Shown piece by piece: positions 1,078 to 8,367 of a stretch of 64,000 nt of DNA; within the stretch, counting starts at the first letter, position 1; each line of letters opens with the position of its first letter. Below the pieces are notes generated by a model. That model was given only the letters and a program-made list of their open reading frames with translations. It was not told the origin of the DNA and did no database searches. Source of the DNA: an uncultured bacterium (GTDB taxonomy: Bacteria; Zixibacteria; MSB-5A5; CAIYYT01); NCBI GenBank assembly GCA_963726455.1, contig CAVSCK010000001.1, positions 32,001 through 96,000 on the forward strand, written 5' to 3'. Made by a program: the position numbers and the translations under genes.

Positions 1078-2392
1078 CTATCCTTGGTTTGATTGTTGCT
1101 TCCGCTCTGTAAGTCCGGAAAGTTGCGCCGGATCAGTCGTGTAACGTTCCACTTCTGCGATTGTCTTGGCGAGATCGGCATCAAGCTGATTTGCCGTCAG
1201 GCGATCGCGAAACATTGTAATCGCATAACTAAGTACCGTCGACAACGTCGCGCGATTGTTGATGTAGCCGGAGAATGCATTGCGATACGCTTCCTCGTCG
1301 GCGGGAATAATCCGCTCGCGATACAGGCCGGCGTTCTCCCGCAGATGAAGCGCGTCAAGATAACAGCATCTTAAGTCTGGTCGTAACATCGCGAGCCAAC
1401 TGCGCCGCCTCTGCATCGGTGCTTTGCTTCATCAGATCCATCGACTTACCCATCGCGCGCTGCTTGCGGCCGGAGAAAATCGGTAGCGACAAAGTTGCCT
1501 GGAAACCGACCATGTTGTCGCGCTGTTCCATCTCGGTGCTAAAGCGAAAATTATAGTTCGCAGACAGACCAAGCATCGGCCACTCCATCCGGCGCTCCGC
1601 TTCCGCAGAGAAGCCGTAGCTTTTCGCCTGTTCCGAGAGTTTCTGCAAGGGCGGATAATGCTCTCGCGCTGCGGCAATCCACGGATCAGCATTGGCAGGA
1701 AGCTGGATTGAATCGGGCGTCGCCGGTGCATACATCGGACTCTCGGTCGCCAGCCCCCGCAAGGTATTCAGATTATACTGGGCGCTTTCGACCTGATGTG
1801 ACGATGGCGTAAGTTGTGTTTGCAGCCGCCACAAATCGGCCTGAGCCGCGTAGACATCTTCCGGATTTGACTGGGAGGTTGCCACTCGCGACTTCACCGA
1901 CGCCACCACATCCTGCGATACCTCGATTTGCTTCATCAACAAATCGACGCTGCGCAGACTGTAATACAGATCGAAATATGCCAGCTTCGCCGCGGTGGCG
2001 AGTTCCAATTCAGAGTCATAACGATCCTGTGTAGCCGCTCGCGCATCAGCCAGCGCCGACTTCTTTTCGAGTCCCTTCTGGCCCGCGTAGGGGATATTCT
2101 GGCTCAATCCCACCATTCTCATGGTCATCGGGTCCATCTTGAAATCAAATGAGGTCGGCAGATTCACAACTCCGAGCATCAGCATCGGATCATCCCAGGC
2201 GCCGGCAGACCTGGCCTTGGATTTGGCGGCATCTTCCATATAGCGCATGGCAGCCAACCGATCATTATGCTGAATGACCTCGGAAATAACCTGTTTCAGA
2301 CTCAGACTATCAGCTGTAGATTGTGGCCGTACAGTGACCGGACTCGAGAGACTGAGGATTAGTACCATAAACACAGTAACCTTCCAATTCAT
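1078..2392 (-). pseudogene. TolC/CusC-family outer membrane efflux protein, split by an apparent 1-nt frameshift near 1362-1368 (possibly a sequencing artefact)
   Basis: ORF 1355..2392 has a signal peptide, WDDPMLMLG, SQNIPYAGQK and SLPIFSGRKQ motifs. ORF 1078..1416 supplies the missing C-terminal helices (LYRERIIPADEEAYRNAFSGY). Confidence 0.8.
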
Positions 2393-2691
2393 CTCTCCTC
2401 CTTACTGCAATCCGTATGCCGGACTGGTACAATCCGAGAATCTGCGATCTGACAACGGTTTACACAGGGAAAACATCGGTGCTGAACATTCTACGTCCAC
2501 AATATTGGCGAAATCTAGAGAATATTATTCAACAAGACAATCGGGAATTGGACATGTGAGCCTGCTCGGGTGGGTGGGCCTTTTCATTCTCAACGACTTA
2601 GCGAATGTTGCCTCGATGGGCACATAGATTGAACCGTACGAGGGTTAATGGTGTTATATCAGAAGGCAGAAGAAACAGAAAGGATTTAGAA

Positions 2692-3162
2692 ATGTTCAGA
2701 ACGGCAATCTACTTCACCGCATTGTTATCGATTCTAGCTTTCGGCTCGCTGCTCGCAGCCGACAGCACCAAAGTTGTGCCGGCTCCGTCGAAACCCAAAG
2801 AACTTCACGCGCAGGAGCTTTGCCCGGTCATGGGAAGCAAGATCGACAAGAAGATGTTCCTCGATATGCAGGGTCAGCGAGTGTACTTCTGCTGTGCCGG
2901 TTGCTCGGATAAATTCAAGGCAGACCCGGACAAATATTTCAAGCAGGCCGCTGCCGATGGCGTCGTGTTCGAAAACGTTCAGAAGATCTGTCCGGTCTCA
3001 GGCGAGAAGATTGACAAGAAGGTGTACTCCGACTGGCAGGGACGCCGAGTGTATTTTTGCTGCAAGAAGTGCCGCTCGCTGTTCCCGAGTTCACCAGACA
3101 AATACATTAAACAACTCGACATGCCGCCCGACAGCGTCAAGTGGGATAAGAGTATGATGTAG
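2692..3162 (+). CDS. Exported tandem YHS-domain metal-binding protein
   Basis: Signal peptide from ATG 2692 (AAGGA upstream); two CPVxG..ID......GxRVYFCC..C...F...PDKY repeats; divergent from the Cus-like genes. Confidence 0.85.
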   Translation: MFRTAIYFTALLSILAFGSLLAADSTKVVPAPSKPKELHAQELCPVMGSKIDKKMFLDMQGQRVYFCCAGCSDKFKADPDKYFKQAAADGVVFENVQKICPVSGEKIDKKVYSDWQGRRVYFCCKKCRSLFPSSPDKYIKQLDMPPDSVKWDKSMM

Positions 3163-3250: not shown

Positions 3251-3340
3251 TCTAGACGTGGCAAGACCTTGTTCCGAGTTTTTTGATCTCGAATTCCACC
3301 TTCTCCGCTATTGTGACTCGCCGAAAGCTTCCGAAAGTAG

Positions 3341-3370
3341 TTGACAATCAACGACGCATTTTGCTATAAT
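3341..3370 (+). promoter_or_regulatory. sigma70 promoter of the radical SAM / precursor operon
   Basis: TTGACA-N18-TATAAT with extended -10 TGn. Confidence 0.75.
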
Positions 3371-3467
3371 GGGTCAGCGCCGGGACTCAATGGCAAAAAG
3401 TAGCTAGCAATTCATTCAGTGAGACACGCCCTCTTGTCTCATAGTGCCCTTTCTACCAGGGAGCATA

Positions 3468-4805
3468 GTGAAACCGTCACGCTACAACATCTTCGTAGAT
3501 ACGAACGACGGCAAGAAACTGGCATTCAACAGCGCCAGTGCCGCCTTGGCCGAGATCGAATCCGACAAGTTCCCCACGATTCAAAAGCTGCTCGACAATT
3601 CAGATTCCGCCGCCACGGCCGAGGAAAAGCAATATCTGGCGGCTCTCGGTCATGGCAAATATCTTATCGAAGACGACATCGACGAAATCACGCTGTTGAA
3701 AGTACGCAATAGCAAGAATCGCTTCTCCGGCAAAATCATCATGCTCACGATTGCACCGACGCTGGCGTGCAATCTTCGTTGCGACTACTGCTTTGTAAAT
3801 CAACAGGCCGTGCGCATGACACCGGAAACTGAGCAGGCGCTTTTGCGCTTCAAGGAAAACGAATTACAGCGTGCCGAAGGTCTCTCCATTACCTGGTTTG
3901 GCGGCGAGCCGACTTTGTGTCCTGACACGATCGAACGGCTGCAGGAAGGGTATCGGGAACTTTGTTCTCGTTACCAAGTCGAACTCTATCCCAGCGGTAT
4001 CGTGACCAATGGTTACTTGCTTGATGCCGCCATGTCATCCCGGCTTTCGCGTGCGGGAATCGCCAGCGCCCAAACAACGCTGGACGGCCCGGAGCGGATT
4101 CACGACAGCCGCCGTCGCCTGCAAAGCGGCAAGGGCACCTTCCAGAGGATCGTCGACAACATCGAGCAGTCGTACAATACGCTCAAGATATCGGTGCGCG
4201 TGAATGTCGATCGCGACAACATCAATTCCGCTCTCGAGTTGATGGAGTACTTGGATGACCGGAAACTCCTGCGGAAGGTCGGCATCCATTTCGCGCAGGT
4301 GCTGCCCTCTAAAGGCGCGTGTGCCGACATGCGCGACAACTGTTACTCCGAGCAGGAATATGCTCGGGAACAACTGCGCTTGTACCGGATGCTGATCGAT
4401 CACGGCTACAATCATATCAGTTACCCCAATCCTGCCGGTGGCGGTCTCTGTGCCGCTTGTTCCGACAATGCCTGGGTGGTCTCGCCGACCGGCGAACTGT
4501 TCAAGTGCTGGGAAGAAATCTCGGCCAACAGTAGTGACTCAGTCGGCTCGATCTTCGACCTGAAGACGGAATCGCACAAAACGTCCAAACTCAACAAATA
4601 TTTGGCCTGGAATCCCTTCGAAAAGTCAGATTGCGTTTCCTGCAATATTCTGCCGCTCTGTATGGGCGGCTGTCCGCAGCAAGCGCTGGAAATCAATTCG
4701 GAAAAGGCGGGAGCCTGCTGCTCCTGGAAGTATAACCTCGCGGAGATGCTTACGCTCCGCTATCTGTGTGACCAACAACAGAATCAGAAGGAGGTGAGAC
4801 AATGA
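3468..4805 (+). CDS. Radical SAM/SPASM peptide maturase with N-terminal RRE-like (PqqD-like) region
   Basis: CNLRCDYC, WFGGEPTL, TNGYLL, TLDGPERIHD motifs; SPASM Cys set C..VVSPTGELFKC..CVSCNILPLCMGGCP..C. About 85-aa N-terminal extension beginning KPSRYN. GTG start 3468 follows GGGAG. Confidence 0.9.
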   Translation: MKPSRYNIFVDTNDGKKLAFNSASAALAEIESDKFPTIQKLLDNSDSAATAEEKQYLAALGHGKYLIEDDIDEITLLKVRNSKNRFSGKIIMLTIAPTLACNLRCDYCFVNQQAVRMTPETEQALLRFKENELQRAEGLSITWFGGEPTLCPDTIERLQEGYRELCSRYQVELYPSGIVTNGYLLDAAMSSRLSRAGIASAQTTLDGPERIHDSRRRLQSGKGTFQRIVDNIEQSYNTLKISVRVNVDRDNINSALELMEYLDDRKLLRKVGIHFAQVLPSKGACADMRDNCYSEQEYAREQLRLYRMLIDHGYNHISYPNPAGGGLCAACSDNAWVVSPTGELFKCWEEISANSSDSVGSIFDLKTESHKTSKLNKYLAWNPFEKSDCVSCNILPLCMGGCPQQALEINSEKAGACCSWKYNLAEMLTLRYLCDQQQNQKEVRQ

Positions 4806-4903
4806 GATTCATCGAACAGCCAATGCCGGATGTTATCAACAAGTGCCCCATTTATCAATGGTGGTGTCCATTCGGATATTATCCGATCAGCCCGCGCGAC
4901 TAG
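4802..4903 (+). CDS. Putative RiPP precursor 1: MRFIEQPMPDVINKCPIYQWWCPFGYYPISPRD (33 aa)
   Basis: AAGGAGGTGAG RBS; ATGA overlap with the maturase stop codon; paralogous to peptides at 6300 and 6606. Confidence 0.85.
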   Translation: MRFIEQPMPDVINKCPIYQWWCPFGYYPISPRD

Positions 4904-4930
4904 TTAGCTCGCGGCGCTACTAAATCAAGT

Positions 4931-4978
4931 GAAGGAGTGCAGGGAAGTTCTCGACCGAGACGCACTCCTTCTTTTTTT
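4931..4978 (+). terminator. Conserved 3' hairpin / intrinsic terminator after precursor 1
   Basis: GAAGGAGTGC...GCACTCCTTC stem plus T7. Confidence 0.8.
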
Positions 4979-5044
4979 GAGTCGACATGAAAGCCGTCAA
5001 GCGCAATACCTGAATTCTCCGGATTGTCTTATATTGTTGAACGT

Positions 5045-6058
5045 ATGAACCCGACACGAATTGAAAAGCCCGAAATGGTCGCGTGGGAAATCACCCGCCG
5101 CTGCAATCTGACTTGTCCGCATTGTTACACGGCCGCCAGCGGCAAGGATTTTCCCGAATTATCGACGCAGGAATGTCGCGCAATCATCGACGATCTCATC
5201 GCGCTCGGCACAGTCACTATCGGCTGGACCGGCGGCGAACCGCTGTTGCGTGATGATCTCGAGGAATTGATGATCTACGCCCGCGACAAAGGCGGCATTA
5301 AGTCGGGTGTTACCACCAACGGAGTCCTGTTGGATGAAAAACGCGCCCACTGTCTCAAGCAGGCGGGCGTGGATTCACTGCAAATCAGTCTCGACGGTTC
5401 CACTGCTGAAAGAAATCACCGCATTCGTCGCGCCACCGCCGAGGAATTCGAGAAAACTCTGGCCGCCATCCACATTTGTGCGCCACTCGGTTTTCGCCTT
5501 TGTATCGCCACAGTGTTGGGAAAAGAGAATCTTGATGACGCTTGGGAGATGCTCAAGCTTGCGCATCGCGAGGGTGTCAAGTATTTCCGTTTTTGCGGCT
5601 TTGTGCCGGTTGGTCGTGGCAAGCACAATAGTTCGTTGGAACGTCTGCTGTTCGACTCCGACCTTTTGGAAATCCGGAAATTCGTTGATGAGGCCGCGGC
5701 TCTCGATCATCCCAAAGTTGCGTTCGATCCCGCCTTCGGCCCATTGGCGCCTCGCTATGACTTCCATGTCTGCAATGCCGGCGTTCACACTTTCTATCTG
5801 AATTGCCTCGGTGACGTCTATCCCTGCACTTCGCTCCTGAACAAGCGCTTCATCGTGGGAAACATCAAGGAACGTCCACTGGCCGACATCTGGAACGATC
5901 CAAAGATGACGGAAATCGCTCAATTTCTGCGCGATCAAATACGTGGCGAATGCAGCAGTTGTCGCCATTTCCACAGTTGCCGGGGAGCTTGCCGTGGCAT
6001 CACCTATGCTCACACCGGCGACCTTTTCGCTTCGTTTCCCATGTGCCTCAAGTGGTGA
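5045..6058 (+). CDS. Radical SAM/SPASM protein (NirJ/Ahb/PqqE-like, no RRE); possible second maturase
   Basis: WEITRRCNLTCPHCY, WTGGEPLLR, ISLDG; SPASM CNAG..GDVYPC..CSSCRHFHSCRGACR..C. Start at ATG 5045 or TTG 5024. Confidence 0.88.
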   Translation: MNPTRIEKPEMVAWEITRRCNLTCPHCYTAASGKDFPELSTQECRAIIDDLIALGTVTIGWTGGEPLLRDDLEELMIYARDKGGIKSGVTTNGVLLDEKRAHCLKQAGVDSLQISLDGSTAERNHRIRRATAEEFEKTLAAIHICAPLGFRLCIATVLGKENLDDAWEMLKLAHREGVKYFRFCGFVPVGRGKHNSSLERLLFDSDLLEIRKFVDEAAALDHPKVAFDPAFGPLAPRYDFHVCNAGVHTFYLNCLGDVYPCTSLLNKRFIVGNIKERPLADIWNDPKMTEIAQFLRDQIRGECSSCRHFHSCRGACRGITYAHTGDLFASFPMCLKW

Positions 6059-6128
6059 TCACTGCCTCTTTGACCCGGTCTTCAGGCGAGACGGAAGCCA
6101 AGTTTCAAGCGGTCGAACCTCTTTCAAA

Positions 6129-6157
6129 TTGACTTCGCTTAATGAGATCTGTATTAT
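6129..6157 (+). promoter_or_regulatory. sigma70 promoter for precursor 2
   Basis: TTGACT-N17-TATTAT. Confidence 0.75.
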
Positions 6158-6299
6158 ATCTGAGTTAACATAGACAAATAGTCGCAGTTGGAGTCATCGT
6201 TTGCCGATGCCTCCCGCACCTAATTGCAGCCATAAAACAGGAGCGCACGACGTTCCGATTCTAATGGATCTCAGGCAAACGGAAAGGAGGTGAGAAAGA

Positions 6300-6401
6300 A
6301 TGAAGTTCATCGAACAGCCAATGCCGGAAGTCATAAACAGTTGCAACATGTTTAAACCCTTTTGCCCGATACGGTATTACCCGATCAGTCCCCTGGTCTG
6401 A
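6300..6401 (+). CDS. Putative RiPP precursor 2: MKFIEQPMPEVINSCNMFKPFCPIRYYPISPLV (33 aa)
   Basis: AAAGGAGGTGAG RBS; colinear with precursor 1 (same leader, Cys15, Cys22-Pro, YYPISP). Confidence 0.85.
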   Translation: MKFIEQPMPEVINSCNMFKPFCPIRYYPISPLV

Positions 6402-6427
6402 TTGGCCCGTGGTGTCTCGAATGTAGT

Positions 6428-6470
6428 GAAGGAGTGCACGGAAGCTCTCGAATAAGACGGCACTCCTTCT
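6428..6470 (+). terminator. Conserved 3' hairpin after precursor 2
   Basis: GAAGGAGTGC...GCACTCCTTC, same outer stem as 4931-4971; weak U-tract. Confidence 0.7.
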
Positions 6471-6487
6471 CGTAAGCGAAACACGGC

Positions 6488-6516
6488 TTGACTTAGACGC
6501 ATTCGTTGACTATTAT
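6488..6516 (+). promoter_or_regulatory. sigma70 promoter for precursor 3
   Basis: TTGACT-N17-TATTAT, same hexamers as 6129-6157. Confidence 0.75.
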
Positions 6517-6605
6517 TCAAACATCGAACTAGAAGACATCGCGTTCCAGAGCACATGATGCTCTCATTTTCTGGGCCTGTCAAATGAGTGAAAGGAGGTG
6601 AGATC

Positions 6606-6701
6606 GTGAGATTTATCGAACAGCCGATTCCGGAAATCCTGAAGCCGCCGTCATGCATTCGCTATTGCAAGTTATTCTTCCCGATCCTTCCGCCGTGGTA
6701 G
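6606..6701 (+). CDS. Putative RiPP precursor 3: MRFIEQPIPEILKPPSCIRYCKLFFPILPPW (31 aa, GTG start)
   Basis: AAAGGAGGTGAG RBS; same leader, two Cys, FFPILP tail; double TAG stop. Confidence 0.82.
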   Translation: MRFIEQPIPEILKPPSCIRYCKLFFPILPPW

Positions 6702-6729
6702 TAGCCGATGCCGAAGCAGAATTGAAATC

Positions 6730-6777
6730 CAAGGTGTGCCTCAGTCGCTTGAAGGCGCGGGGCACTCCTTGTTTTGT
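6730..6777 (+). terminator. Conserved 3' hairpin / terminator after precursor 3
   Basis: CAAGGTGTGCC...GGCACTCCTTG plus TTTT. Confidence 0.7.
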
Positions 6778-6812
6778 CAGTAGAATGAATTTGCCTTCGT
6801 ACTTGGTTGGTC

Positions 6813-7248: not shown

Positions 7249-8367
7249 ATGGCAAATAACGAGTTACTAAGAATCGACGGGAGTTTCGGGGAAGGCGGCG
7301 GCCAGATCCTCAGGACGTCCTTATCATTATCAACCTTGCTCGGTCGTCCTGTCGAAGTCGTCAATATTCGCAAGAACCGCAAGTTTCCGGGACTGATGCC
7401 GCAGCACTTGACGGCGGTCAAGGCCTGTCAGACGATTTGCGAGGCCAAAGTCACCGGCGCCGAGATCAATTCCGAACGACTCGAATTTACGCCGGGAAAG
7501 ATTCGTTACGGCAATTACACGTGGGATGTAGCCGAAAGCAAGAAGTCTGCCGGCGCAGCAACCTTGGTGCTGCAAACGGTTCTGCTGCCTTTATTGTTCG
7601 CCCGCAATGAATCTAATCTGACTATCAAGGGCGGTACTCACGTTCCCTGGTCGCCACCGGCTACGTATCTCAAACAGGTATTCCTGCCGGTGCTCGGCTT
7701 GATGGGTTGCCAGACTTTCCTGAAGATCAATCGTTGGGGTTGGTATCCTGAAGGCGGCGGTGATATTTCGTGCCGTATTCGTCCGATTGACAAACTGCAG
7801 CCGCGCCAGTTTGCCGAGCGTGGTAACTTGCTCAAGCTATACGGTCTCTCCGCAGTCTCGAATGTTGGCAACAACGTCGGCGACCGGCAGATGCGGGCGG
7901 CGCAAAAGCTGCTCAAGGCGGCAAATCTGGATGCGGAAATCCGCGTCAAGGAAGTTCCGGCTTCCGGCAAAGGGTCGCTGCTGTTTCTTACGGCGGAGTT
8001 CGAAAACGGCCGCGCCGGATTCACGACACTGGGCGAGAAAGGCCTCCCTGCGGAGAAAGTCTCCGAGGCGACTGTAAACGAGTTGAAAAACTTCCTCGGC
8101 AAATCGGTCTGCCTCGATCACTATCTCGCCGATCAATTGATCCCATACGTGGCGCTTTGCCAAACCCGCATCGAAATGAACGTCTCCAAAATCACAAATC
8201 ATCTGCTCACCAATCTTTGGGTGGTGAAACGATTCCTGCCGATTCAGTACGATCTCAAAGGACCGCTCGGATATCCCGGAACTTTGATTATCGAACCGGC
8301 TCCACCACCGCCGCCACCACCACCTCCTCCGACTGAAACGCCTGCTGAGACTCCGGCGAGCAATTGA
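7249..8367 (+). CDS. rtcA: RNA 3'-terminal phosphate cyclase
   Basis: [43 protein letters not shown] motifs. Confidence 0.95.

Follow-up and report, generated by a model that had tools for sequence, protein, structure and literature searches.

A putative RiPP cassette with two radical SAM/SPASM enzymes and two-cysteine precursor peptides in Zixibacteria and Acidobacteriota

Two radical S-adenosylmethionine (SAM) enzymes with SPASM domains, encoded among three open reading frames (ORFs) of 31-33 codons, raise the question of what these enzymes act on and what they make. The locus lies at positions 3341-6777 of a 64,000-base stretch of an uncultured Zixibacteria genome (contig CAVSCK010000001.1), hereafter the window; its two radical SAM/SPASM genes are named E1 and E2, and the three small ORFs around them are candidate precursor genes. 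A sequence-only reading had proposed a system for peptides that are ribosomally synthesized and then modified post-translationally (RiPPs) with two radical SAM/SPASM enzymes and paralogous precursors, a proposal that is borne out by recurrence of the cassette across genomes, coding evolution of the small ORFs, a RiPP recognition element (RRE)-like domain on E1 and a model of the enzyme-peptide complex. We regard it as very likely that the RiPP cassette is real and that the two enzymes both serve these peptides, and assign a probability of about 0.7 to the fuller reading, in which the locus is a RiPP cassette of an uncurated family that works by the mechanism proposed below.

The novelty, which is well supported, lies in the distinct E1 clade, in the second radical SAM enzyme that is its obligate partner, and in the precursor family; no concept is overturned, and many uncharacterised radical SAM RiPP families exist. 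The family had also been called undescribed, which holds for our searches of NCBIfam, Pfam and the full-text literature and extends to nothing beyond these. The full-text search, whose scope leaves aside subscription papers and the supplementary tables of RiPP mining studies, returned no description of the family, and no paper was found in it on Zixibacteria with radical SAM and RiPP.

Precursor genes and the peptide family

The three small ORFs lie on the forward strand and have the positions and translations first reported for them: precursor peptide 1 at 4802-4903 (33 residues), precursor peptide 2 at 6300-6401 (33 residues) and precursor peptide 3 at 6606-6701 (31 residues, GTG start). They were said to share one Shine-Dalgarno (SD) sequence, and indeed the window contains the 12-mer AAGGAGGTGAGA at three positions (4788, 6284 and 6592), each 2-4 bases 5' of a precursor start, and at no others, against a chance expectation of 0.01; three matches were reached in 0 of 100 shuffles. 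The copies of precursors 2 and 3 occupy 6284-6295 and 6592-6603. That of precursor 1 (4788-4799, forward strand) falls within the last codons of E1, and the E1 stop overlaps the start of precursor 1 as ATGA, so the coupling of the two genes that had been noticed is there. The E1 codons concerned encode K-E-V, the C-terminal consensus of E1 homologues (AAG GAG GTG in the window, 4788-4805); because they double as the SD site of the overlapping precursor gene, part of the C-terminal conservation of E1 may be imposed by ribosome binding. A scan of the whole genome (149,256 small ORFs, 3.64 Mb) with a profile of the peptide family returned these three ORFs and no others (E values 2.5e-10, 3e-10 and 1.8e-8), the next-best ORF having an E value of 0.53. 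The peptides had been described as unannotated, which is only partly right: the public protein collection includes gene calls, unnamed ones, for peptides 1 and 2. None of the three matches an NCBIfam or Pfam model at E ≤ 1.

Coding evolution was analysed in eight orthologous peptide genes of one lineage, which give 28 pairs. Differences at codon positions 1, 2 and 3 numbered 101, 41 and 260, and 234 codon differences were synonymous versus 99 non-synonymous (127 versus 26 in the core, and 34 versus 0 in the first five codons, MKFIE); the 60 bases downstream of the peptide genes are 35% identical in an ungapped comparison in which L028 was also included. The peptide genes are under clear purifying selection and evolve as coding sequence. 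ORFs as short as these could in principle be chance or non-coding features, such as regulatory leaders, with the enzymes acting on some other substrate. We hold this to be extremely improbable, given that the SD 12-mer marks these three sites alone in the window, that amino acids are conserved across genomes while synonymous positions drift, that the genome-wide profile found just these three ORFs, and that the ORFs keep their place relative to E1, ATGA overlap included.

An alignment of 34 family peptides reads M-K-F-I-E-x-P, about six variable residues, and K-P-C-P-C-Y-K-x-L-F-x-I-L-P-P, with an invariant initiator Met and first Cys and with Ile in at least 90% of sequences. In the set of 45 family peptides, M[KR]FIExP is the leader, the number of Cys is exactly two in 39, and 43 have an aromatic-x-[IV] motif after residue 10, usually within the F-x-I-L-P-P tail; shuffled cores have this motif in 16.5 peptides on average and in 27 at most (1000 shuffles). 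The sequence-only reading had described a conserved leader and tail around a variable core. The core is less variable than supposed, the Cys pair and the aromatic-x-Ile being conserved across the family. Among the window copies, peptide 3 comes nearest to the consensus tail of the family (F-P-I-L-P-P-W), and the other two, with their Cys further apart and Y-Y-P-I-S-P as the tail, represent a local variant. Peptides encoded beside E1 relatives that have no E2, namely those of Clo7bot loci and of acidobacterial loci with M-K-F-I-V-P-P-Q leaders, have 3-7 Cys, and aromatic-x-[IV] is found in 3 of 18 of them; since the groups with and without E2 are related lineages, this contrast in Cys number and motif is a correlation and does not count as a set of independent events. 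Six other peptides of the clade were compared with the models as well: five had no NCBIfam match at E ≤ 10, and one matched TIGR04333, the Clo7bot peptide model, through residues 1-9 at 9.4 bits.

Departures from the consensus architecture were also seen. The peptides at 5579-5704 of locus L009 and 5594-5719 of locus L016 have one Cys before aromatic-Pro-Ile, then a stretch of Glu/Pro-Pro-Pro repeats and, close to the C-terminus, their other Cys. Two variant cassettes have tandem E1 paralogues, with the order one precursor, two E1 paralogues and E2 in L015 (2498-6392), and three precursors, two E1 paralogues and E2 in L030 (1863-6398); the consensus-like precursors of both end in Pro-Ile-Ile-Cys and not in Ile-Leu-Pro-Pro.

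Recurrence of the cassette across genomes

A set of species-representative genomes was scanned with the E1 alignment and gave 78 loci, of which 43 have an E1 of at least 42% identity; neighbour counts refer to 79 loci, the window included. An E2 orthologue (47-60% identity) lies just downstream of E1 in 39 of these 43 clade loci, and in the remaining four (L017, L038, L041 and L048) the sequence ends inside the E1 match or at most about 400 bases past it. None of the loci with a lower-identity E1 has an E2 orthologue, and in this E1 clade the pairing with E2 is obligate. Co-occurrence of such peptides with homologous enzymes in other genomes was the test set for the proposal, and a candidate precursor is present in 37 of the 43 loci: 31 have a match to the peptide profile, mostly directly after E1, and six encode a divergent sub-family that lies upstream of E1 and has two repeats of aromatic-Ile-Ile-Cys. 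The six loci without a candidate comprise the four that end early, L045, which starts inside E1, and L054, in which the E1 match covers 66% of the query. The four-base overlap of the E1 stop with the peptide start recurs in 15 further loci.

A quick maximum-likelihood tree of E1-like sequences (IQ-TREE, 76 rows) groups the E2-linked genes in a single clade of 38 rows, made up of the 37 rows with E2 and the truncated L017, with an SH-aLRT (Shimodaira-Hasegawa-like approximate likelihood-ratio test) support of 99. The Clo7bot maturases of Bacillota fall into a separate clade, and the loci with divergent peptides form a sub-clade. Carriers of the cassette belong to Zixibacteria and Acidobacteriota. 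Distribution within the phylum is patchy, with an E2 orthologue in 38 of 201 sampled genomes, 36 of 180 high-quality genomes and 18 of 108 genera, and none was found in the one other genome sampled from the same genus. Metagenomes contain more than 100 E1 clusters at ≥44% identity.

Apart from E1 and E2 we found no conserved neighbours: homologues of the YHS protein, the outer-membrane efflux protein (OEP), DUF4430, RtcA and UPF0047 proteins that are encoded near the cassette in the window occur in 1 of the 79 loci, which is the window itself. A few neighbour clusters do recur, each in 4-8 loci: they encode a PfkB kinase, a CDP-alcohol phosphatidyltransferase and a low-molecular-weight phosphatase, and look like lineage synteny of housekeeping genes and not like parts of the system.

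A product that stays in the cell, such as a peptide-derived cofactor or a metal-handling peptide comparable to mycofactocin, pyrroloquinoline quinone (PQQ) or SCIFF, would agree with several of these observations. The conserved cassette includes neither a protease nor an exporter nor an immunity gene; the MftC and PqqE models, and likewise the structure of PqqE, can be aligned with E2 over its full length; and in this genome a YHS-domain protein and a CusCBA-like efflux operon adjoin the cassette, as a copper-binding protein is adjacent in the cluster of the ranthionine-forming enzyme CrpC, according to the accessible text of that study (PMC13692751). Against such a product stand the confinement of the YHS and OEP homologues to the window, the patchy spread of the cassette over genomes and genera with no copy in the other sampled member of the genus, and the score of E2 on the MftC model (168.5 bits, cutoff 265). 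Two or three divergent paralogous precursors occur in several loci, whereas cofactor precursors are usually single and highly conserved. Moreover, no gene for an MftB- or PqqD-like RRE protein appears among the conserved neighbours, although no search was aimed at one. We judge the cofactor explanation improbable.

E1, a putative maturase with an RRE-like domain

E1 (3468-4805, forward strand) encodes 445 residues from a GTG at 3468; an in-frame GTG upstream, at 3444, would give 453. The start at 3468 is the likely one because it yields MKPSRYN, the family consensus, and the 445-residue length of record P0001 in the public protein collection. Residue numbers below follow the 453-residue reading used in the alignments. 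Both enzymes had been assigned to the radical SAM/SPASM class, and both match Radical_SAM and SPASM models. In E1 the CX3CX2C motif is C109/C113/C116 (Pfam Radical_SAM, E value 3e-14). The SPASM pattern of seven Cys, C-x9-15-G-x4-C ... C-x2-C-x5-C-x3-C ... C, is represented by C336, C355, C397, C400, C406, C410 and C425 together with G350, and E1 scores 49.5 bits on TIGR04085, above the cutoff of 27. These residues are invariant among 22 homologues, as are two more Cys.

A search of 3468-4805 against the NCBIfam maturase models, which the sequence-only reading had suggested, placed E1 under every family cutoff and nearest to Clo7bot. The best matches are TIGR04334 (Clo7bot, 341.7 bits, cutoff 600), TIGR04463 (308.5, cutoff 525) and CefB (229.7, cutoff 600), followed at lower scores by FlmE/OhkG, geopeptide and PapB (NF047865, 123.7 bits, cutoff 340) families. 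All of the nearest families are maturases of Cys-containing peptides. Twelve sampled E1 genes of the clade, among them a tandem paralogue (L015:2614-3984), likewise stay under every cutoff, with 231-354 bits on TIGR04334. Control sequences pass their own models, with 841 and 728 bits for two clostridial maturases on TIGR04334 and 631.4 bits for a cyanobacterial one (L083) on TIGR04463.

These scores bear on the simplest alternative, that the cassette is a member of the defined Clo7bot system (maturase TIGR04334 and peptide TIGR04333) and nothing new. Clo7bot is the best NCBIfam match of E1, and clostridial Clo7bot peptides have the M-K-F-I-x-x-P leader in common with those described here. The maturase scores are nevertheless far apart (341.7 bits against a cutoff of 600 for E1, 231-354 within the clade and 728 and 841 for the clostridial proteins), as are those of the peptides on TIGR04333 (cutoff 31), where the clostridial controls reach 58.1 and 36.8 bits, the window peptides have no match and one of six clade peptides reaches 9.4. 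Clo7bot maturases also form their own clade in the E1 tree, have no E2, and accompany peptides with 4-7 Cys instead of two. We consider membership of this system very improbable. The resemblance had been described as loose; it is genuine yet falls short of membership: the leaders are alike, and neither E1 nor the window peptides enter the family. At the level of curated models, with the cutoffs of TIGR04334 and TIGR04333 not reached, Clo7bot membership is refuted.

An RRE-like N-terminus had been proposed for E1. An AlphaFold2 (AF2) model of the protein (mean predicted local distance difference test, pLDDT, 88.2) begins with a beta-beta-beta-alpha-alpha domain of pLDDT above 90, with strands at 15-19, 25-29 and 34-38 and helices at 43-51, 59-70 and 81-94. 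Fold search with this model gave CteB, TigE and anSME as top matches, the entire model being aligned with the RRE-bearing CteB (E value 2.3e-17 over 465 columns) and TigE and also with anSME. By sequence, too, CteB is the nearest solved protein (E value 4.3e-12), at an identity of 16-18%. A Pfam scan of E1 listed no PqqD-type match at E ≤ 1. Domain architecture and the full-length alignment with CteB thus argue for a predicted RRE-like domain.

Leader binding to this domain was modelled, a check that had likewise been suggested. With both partners given as alignments, the complex of E1 and peptide 1 scored 0.84 over three runs, compared with 0.00 for the best of three controls; of solved complexes, 58 of 80 pass the mark that it passes, and of mismatched pairs, 2 of 110. 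At least 43% of contacts are common to the runs, and the partner pLDDT is at least 46. Confident contacts place leader residues 1-8 on the N-terminal domain, against E1 residues 26-38 (its third strand) and 63-72 (the following helix), and residues 35-37 of E1 are nearly invariant in the family. The model supports a predicted binding of the leader to the RRE-like domain of E1 in the classical RRE mode.

Further E1-like genes were seen outside the clade. In the same genome, L002 (G000:C4:936878-941035, minus strand) is a second RiPP-like locus with two paralogous small ORFs (3562-3666 and 2991-3110) that have a M-I-Y-L-I-D-P-Q leader, 2-3 Cys and an aromatic-Tyr-Pro motif. Each lies behind GGAGG, and both are upstream of a 33%-identical E1 paralogue, which appears split into two frames near query residue 394, and of a further radical SAM gene. 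L003 (G000:C3:647649-651929) contains a third E1-like radical SAM/SPASM gene (1477-2868, 463 residues, 33% identity) and, after it, an ORF of 37 codons (2980-3093) with a Cys-rich C-terminus behind a GGGAGGTG site. Four E1-like radical SAM/SPASM genes stand in tandem on a Desulfobacterales contig (L079; starts at 1270, 2656, 4007 and 5362), in a clade near TIGR04463-like sequences.

E2, the second radical SAM/SPASM enzyme

E2 (5024-6058, forward strand) starts at TTG 5024 or ATG 5045. Its CX3CX2C motif is C27/C31/C34, with C27 invariant and C31 and C34 in at least 90% of 22 sequences (Pfam Radical_SAM, E value 4e-31), and its SPASM Cys residues C250, C268, C310, C313, C319, C323 and C341 are invariant in 22 orthologues; the score on Pfam SPASM is 49.7 bits (cutoff 21.5). 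Because the radical SAM motif begins at residue 27, E2 has no room for an RRE. The nearest families are AhbD, NirJ, MftC, StsB and PqqE, all under their cutoffs, with best NCBIfam scores of 184 bits for AhbD (cutoff 500), 168.5 for MftC (TIGR03962, cutoff 265) and 127.1 for PqqE (cutoff 381). Nearest solved structures and fold matches are SkfB, CteB, PqqE and SuiB.

A radical SAM protein of this kind could leave all of the chemistry to E1 and act as its structural or electron-transfer partner, as TrnD would with TrnC in thuricin CD. The precedent is a tight complex of two radical SAM enzymes, of which the radical SAM activity of only one is strictly essential, as the accessible part of the thuricin CD study reports (PMC12093266). 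E2 would fit such a role in that it has no RRE, its CX3CX2C motif starting at residue 27, and always stands alongside this E1 clade. Its near-invariant radical SAM motif and full set of SPASM Cys in 22 orthologues argue, however, that it is active, though TrnC and TrnD are themselves both reported active. In addition, the presence of E2 tracks a change in the peptides, from 3-7 Cys to two Cys and an aromatic-x-Ile tail. A purely supporting role for E2 is unlikely in our estimate.

Proposed pathway and weighing of the evidence

In the mechanism that we favour, the three small ORFs would be translated into precursors of 31-33 residues, each with an M[KR]FIEQP leader, a core of about 15-20 residues with two Cys, and an aromatic-x-Ile-x-Pro tail. 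The RRE of E1 would bind the leader, residues 1-8 adding onto its third beta-strand, and the radical SAM cluster and two SPASM clusters of E1 would then form one or more intramolecular thioether cross-links from the core Cys. We lean slightly towards E1 being a thioether maker, by analogy, because all of its nearest families act on Cys-containing peptides and one of them includes the characterised ranthionine installer CrpC; from the same kinship, links to a non-alpha carbon (ranthionine type) would be the more likely kind. As E2 has no RRE, it must act on E1-bound or E1-modified peptide. It would introduce a second radical modification on the aromatic/Ile tail, either a second thioether or an aromatic-to-aliphatic C-C link; in the alternative role it would be an obligate, non-chemical partner of E1 on the pattern of TrnC/TrnD. 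In the course of evolution E2 arises jointly with the aromatic-x-Ile tail and with the reduction to two Cys, and a second radical step on the tail is the most likely of these. Trimming and export, if they take place, would fall to unlinked functions, as the conserved cassette has no protease or exporter. By analogy, the product would most likely be a peptide cross-linked by thioether and modified in a second radical step by E2; that E2 makes a cross-link chemically different from that of E1 is a tentative suggestion, on balance doubtful.

A bolder version of the proposal, to which we give a somewhat smaller chance still, would make this a new RiPP class, in which the two SPASM enzymes furnish a lipophilic core, about 15 residues long, with two chemically different cross-links. 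E1 would contribute the thioether or thioethers from the Cys pair, and E2 an aromatic-to-Ile C-C link of the cyclophane type, or a thioether to an unactivated aliphatic carbon, at aromatic-x-Ile-Leu-Pro-Pro. M-K-F-I-x-x-P would also be a portable leader of seven residues for the RREs of an entire enzyme superfamily, made up of the Clo7bot clade, the acidobacterial clades and this one.

Several points weigh against the reading of the locus as a cassette with this mechanism. The cassette is known here from its genes alone, from which we infer expression and modification; a search for sequencing runs over 3300-6800 listed none. Polar residues that could act as acceptors (Asp, Asn or Thr, for example) are not conserved in the core, and characterised ranthionine synthases use acceptors of that sort. 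In the complex model the peptide core is not confidently placed (partner pLDDT below 50), and because solved RRE-leader complexes exist (such as CteB, SuiB and ChlB), the score of 0.84 may partly be memory of the model. The nearest families and fold matches of E2 do not discriminate between chemistries. The count of 31 of 43 loci with a profile match is partly circular, as the second peptide profile was made from matches in the counted loci; the first profile, built from six sequences, had already found most of these 31. All loci come from related genomes, so that the counts are not independent events. Finally, among the locus neighbours no protease, transporter or immunity gene was found to be conserved with the cassette, an uncommon situation for secreted bioactive peptides.

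Radical SAM/SPASM RiPPs keep yielding new cross-links in peptides, as well as bioactive macrocycles, and the system described here is small: it needs two enzymes plus a precursor some 30 residues long, in which the leader takes up about 13. The strict pairing of E1 and E2 and the switch from a Cys-rich to a two-Cys, aromatic-x-Ile core offer a cheap and clear route to the role of E2. The very short common leader could serve as a minimal recognition tag for engineering.

Regulatory features and flanking genes

Promoter-like sites on the forward strand precede three genes of the cassette. P1 (3341-3370, 5' of E1) matches the consensus at 12 of 12 positions, with TTGACA, an 18-nt spacer, TATAAT and a TG before the second hexamer; P2 (6129-6157, 5' of precursor 2) and P3 (6488-6516, 5' of precursor 3) match at 10 of 12. 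Between 3100 and 7300, eight sigma-70-like sites were found versus 2.9 expected from shuffles, a count that reflects consensus match only. An Rfam scan of the window returned no family at gathering score and hence no known riboswitch or leader RNA in the 5' untranslated regions.

Each precursor gene is followed by a hairpin on the forward strand. The one after precursor 1 (4931-4978) is terminator-like, with 10-bp arms GAAGGAGTGC / GCACTCCTTC and then seven T (z-score -0.08, for an 82-nt stretch against shuffles). That after precursor 2 (6428-6469) has identical arms and no T-run (z-score -0.67), and the terminator-like one after precursor 3 (6730-6777) has similar arms followed by TTTTGT (z-score -2.10, with 7 of 200 shuffles folding as well or better). 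With fold z-scores this weak, the support for terminator-like function is anatomical and not statistical, and a simple terminator scan listed none of the three.

Just upstream of the cassette, on the minus strand, lies a CusCBA-like heavy-metal resistance-nodulation-division (RND) efflux operon (L086 7799-14389, equal to G000:C1:27799-34389; its last part is at window positions 1078-2392). Its membrane-fusion gene, with three heavy-metal-binding domains, and its outer-membrane gene each appear as a pair of overlapping ORFs, for which frameshifts or errors of assembly could account. Between this operon and the cassette (2605-3162) lies the gene for a protein that has two metal-binding domains of the YHS/TRASH type. 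The adjacent copper-efflux and YHS genes were ruled out as parts of the cassette, homologues standing beside it in 1 of 79 loci only. Downstream, at 7249-8367, is a gene for an RtcA-like RNA 3'-phosphate cyclase whose C-terminus has ten consecutive prolines and then a Thr/Pro/Ala/Glu-rich tail.

Comparison with known systems

Clo7bot systems of Clostridia resemble the cassette in having a maturase of about 440 residues with radical SAM and SPASM domains and an RRE (in E1 a predicted, RRE-like domain), several adjoining paralogous short precursors, and an M-K-F-I-x-K-P leader. They differ in that their peptides, among those encountered here, have 4-7 Cys and no aromatic-x-Ile-Leu-Pro-Pro tail, and in having no E2 orthologue. 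To our knowledge Clo7bot is a bioinformatic family without a solved product, and our full-text search returned no paper on it.

CrpC of Methanococcus voltae (TIGR04463) combines RRE, radical SAM and SPASM domains, as E1 is predicted to do, and TIGR04463 is the second-best family of E1, although with 308.5 bits E1 does not reach the cutoff of 525 that separates members. CrpC was shown to place ranthionine thioethers in a Cys-containing protein whose gene lies beside its own; this substrate, of 28.8 kDa, has repeated Cys motifs and is not a peptide of about 30 residues. The accessible text of the study describes no second radical SAM enzyme in this system (PMC13692751). The SCIFF maturase CteB (PDB 5WGG and 5WHY) is an RRE-bearing SPASM protein that forms thioethers, as E1 is proposed to do, and is the closest solved structure to E1 by both sequence and fold, whereas it works in a single-enzyme system and has 16-18% identity to E1. 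SCIFF peptides have six Cys in about 45 residues.

Thuricin CD, with TrnC and TrnD, resembles the cassette in that two radical SAM enzymes are encoded with several precursors, and ruminococcin C, with RumMC1 and RumMC2, reportedly has the same arrangement. TrnC and TrnD work only as a complex, as far as the accessible part of the thuricin CD study describes them (PMC12093266). Unlike the products proposed here, thuricin CD and ruminococcin C are sactipeptides of Bacillota.

MftC and PqqE align with E2 from end to end, at 168.5 and 127.1 bits and under the respective cutoffs of 265 and 381. Neither has a fused RRE; both depend on one in a separate protein, and both have aromatic residues in a short peptide as their targets. 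A conserved C-terminal reaction is unlikely here, as the precursors end differently from one another.

Triceptide maturases cross-link an aromatic-X-X motif, and the aromatic-x-[Ile/Val] of the core has this form, which by itself does not show a cyclophane. E1 scores weakly on the cyclophane models (YhhB NF041707, 62.5 bits, cutoff 445; GrrM/OscB TIGR04261, 55.8, cutoff 310; AmcB NF041718, 59, cutoff 425), and these three are not among the best 25 of the 92 families matched by E2. Two conserved Cys, as in the peptides described here, are not a feature of triceptides. The prerequisites of the thioether class, in turn, appear to be present in this cassette, judging from the gene products: Cys residues in the core and an RRE-SPASM enzyme from a thioether-forming neighbourhood.

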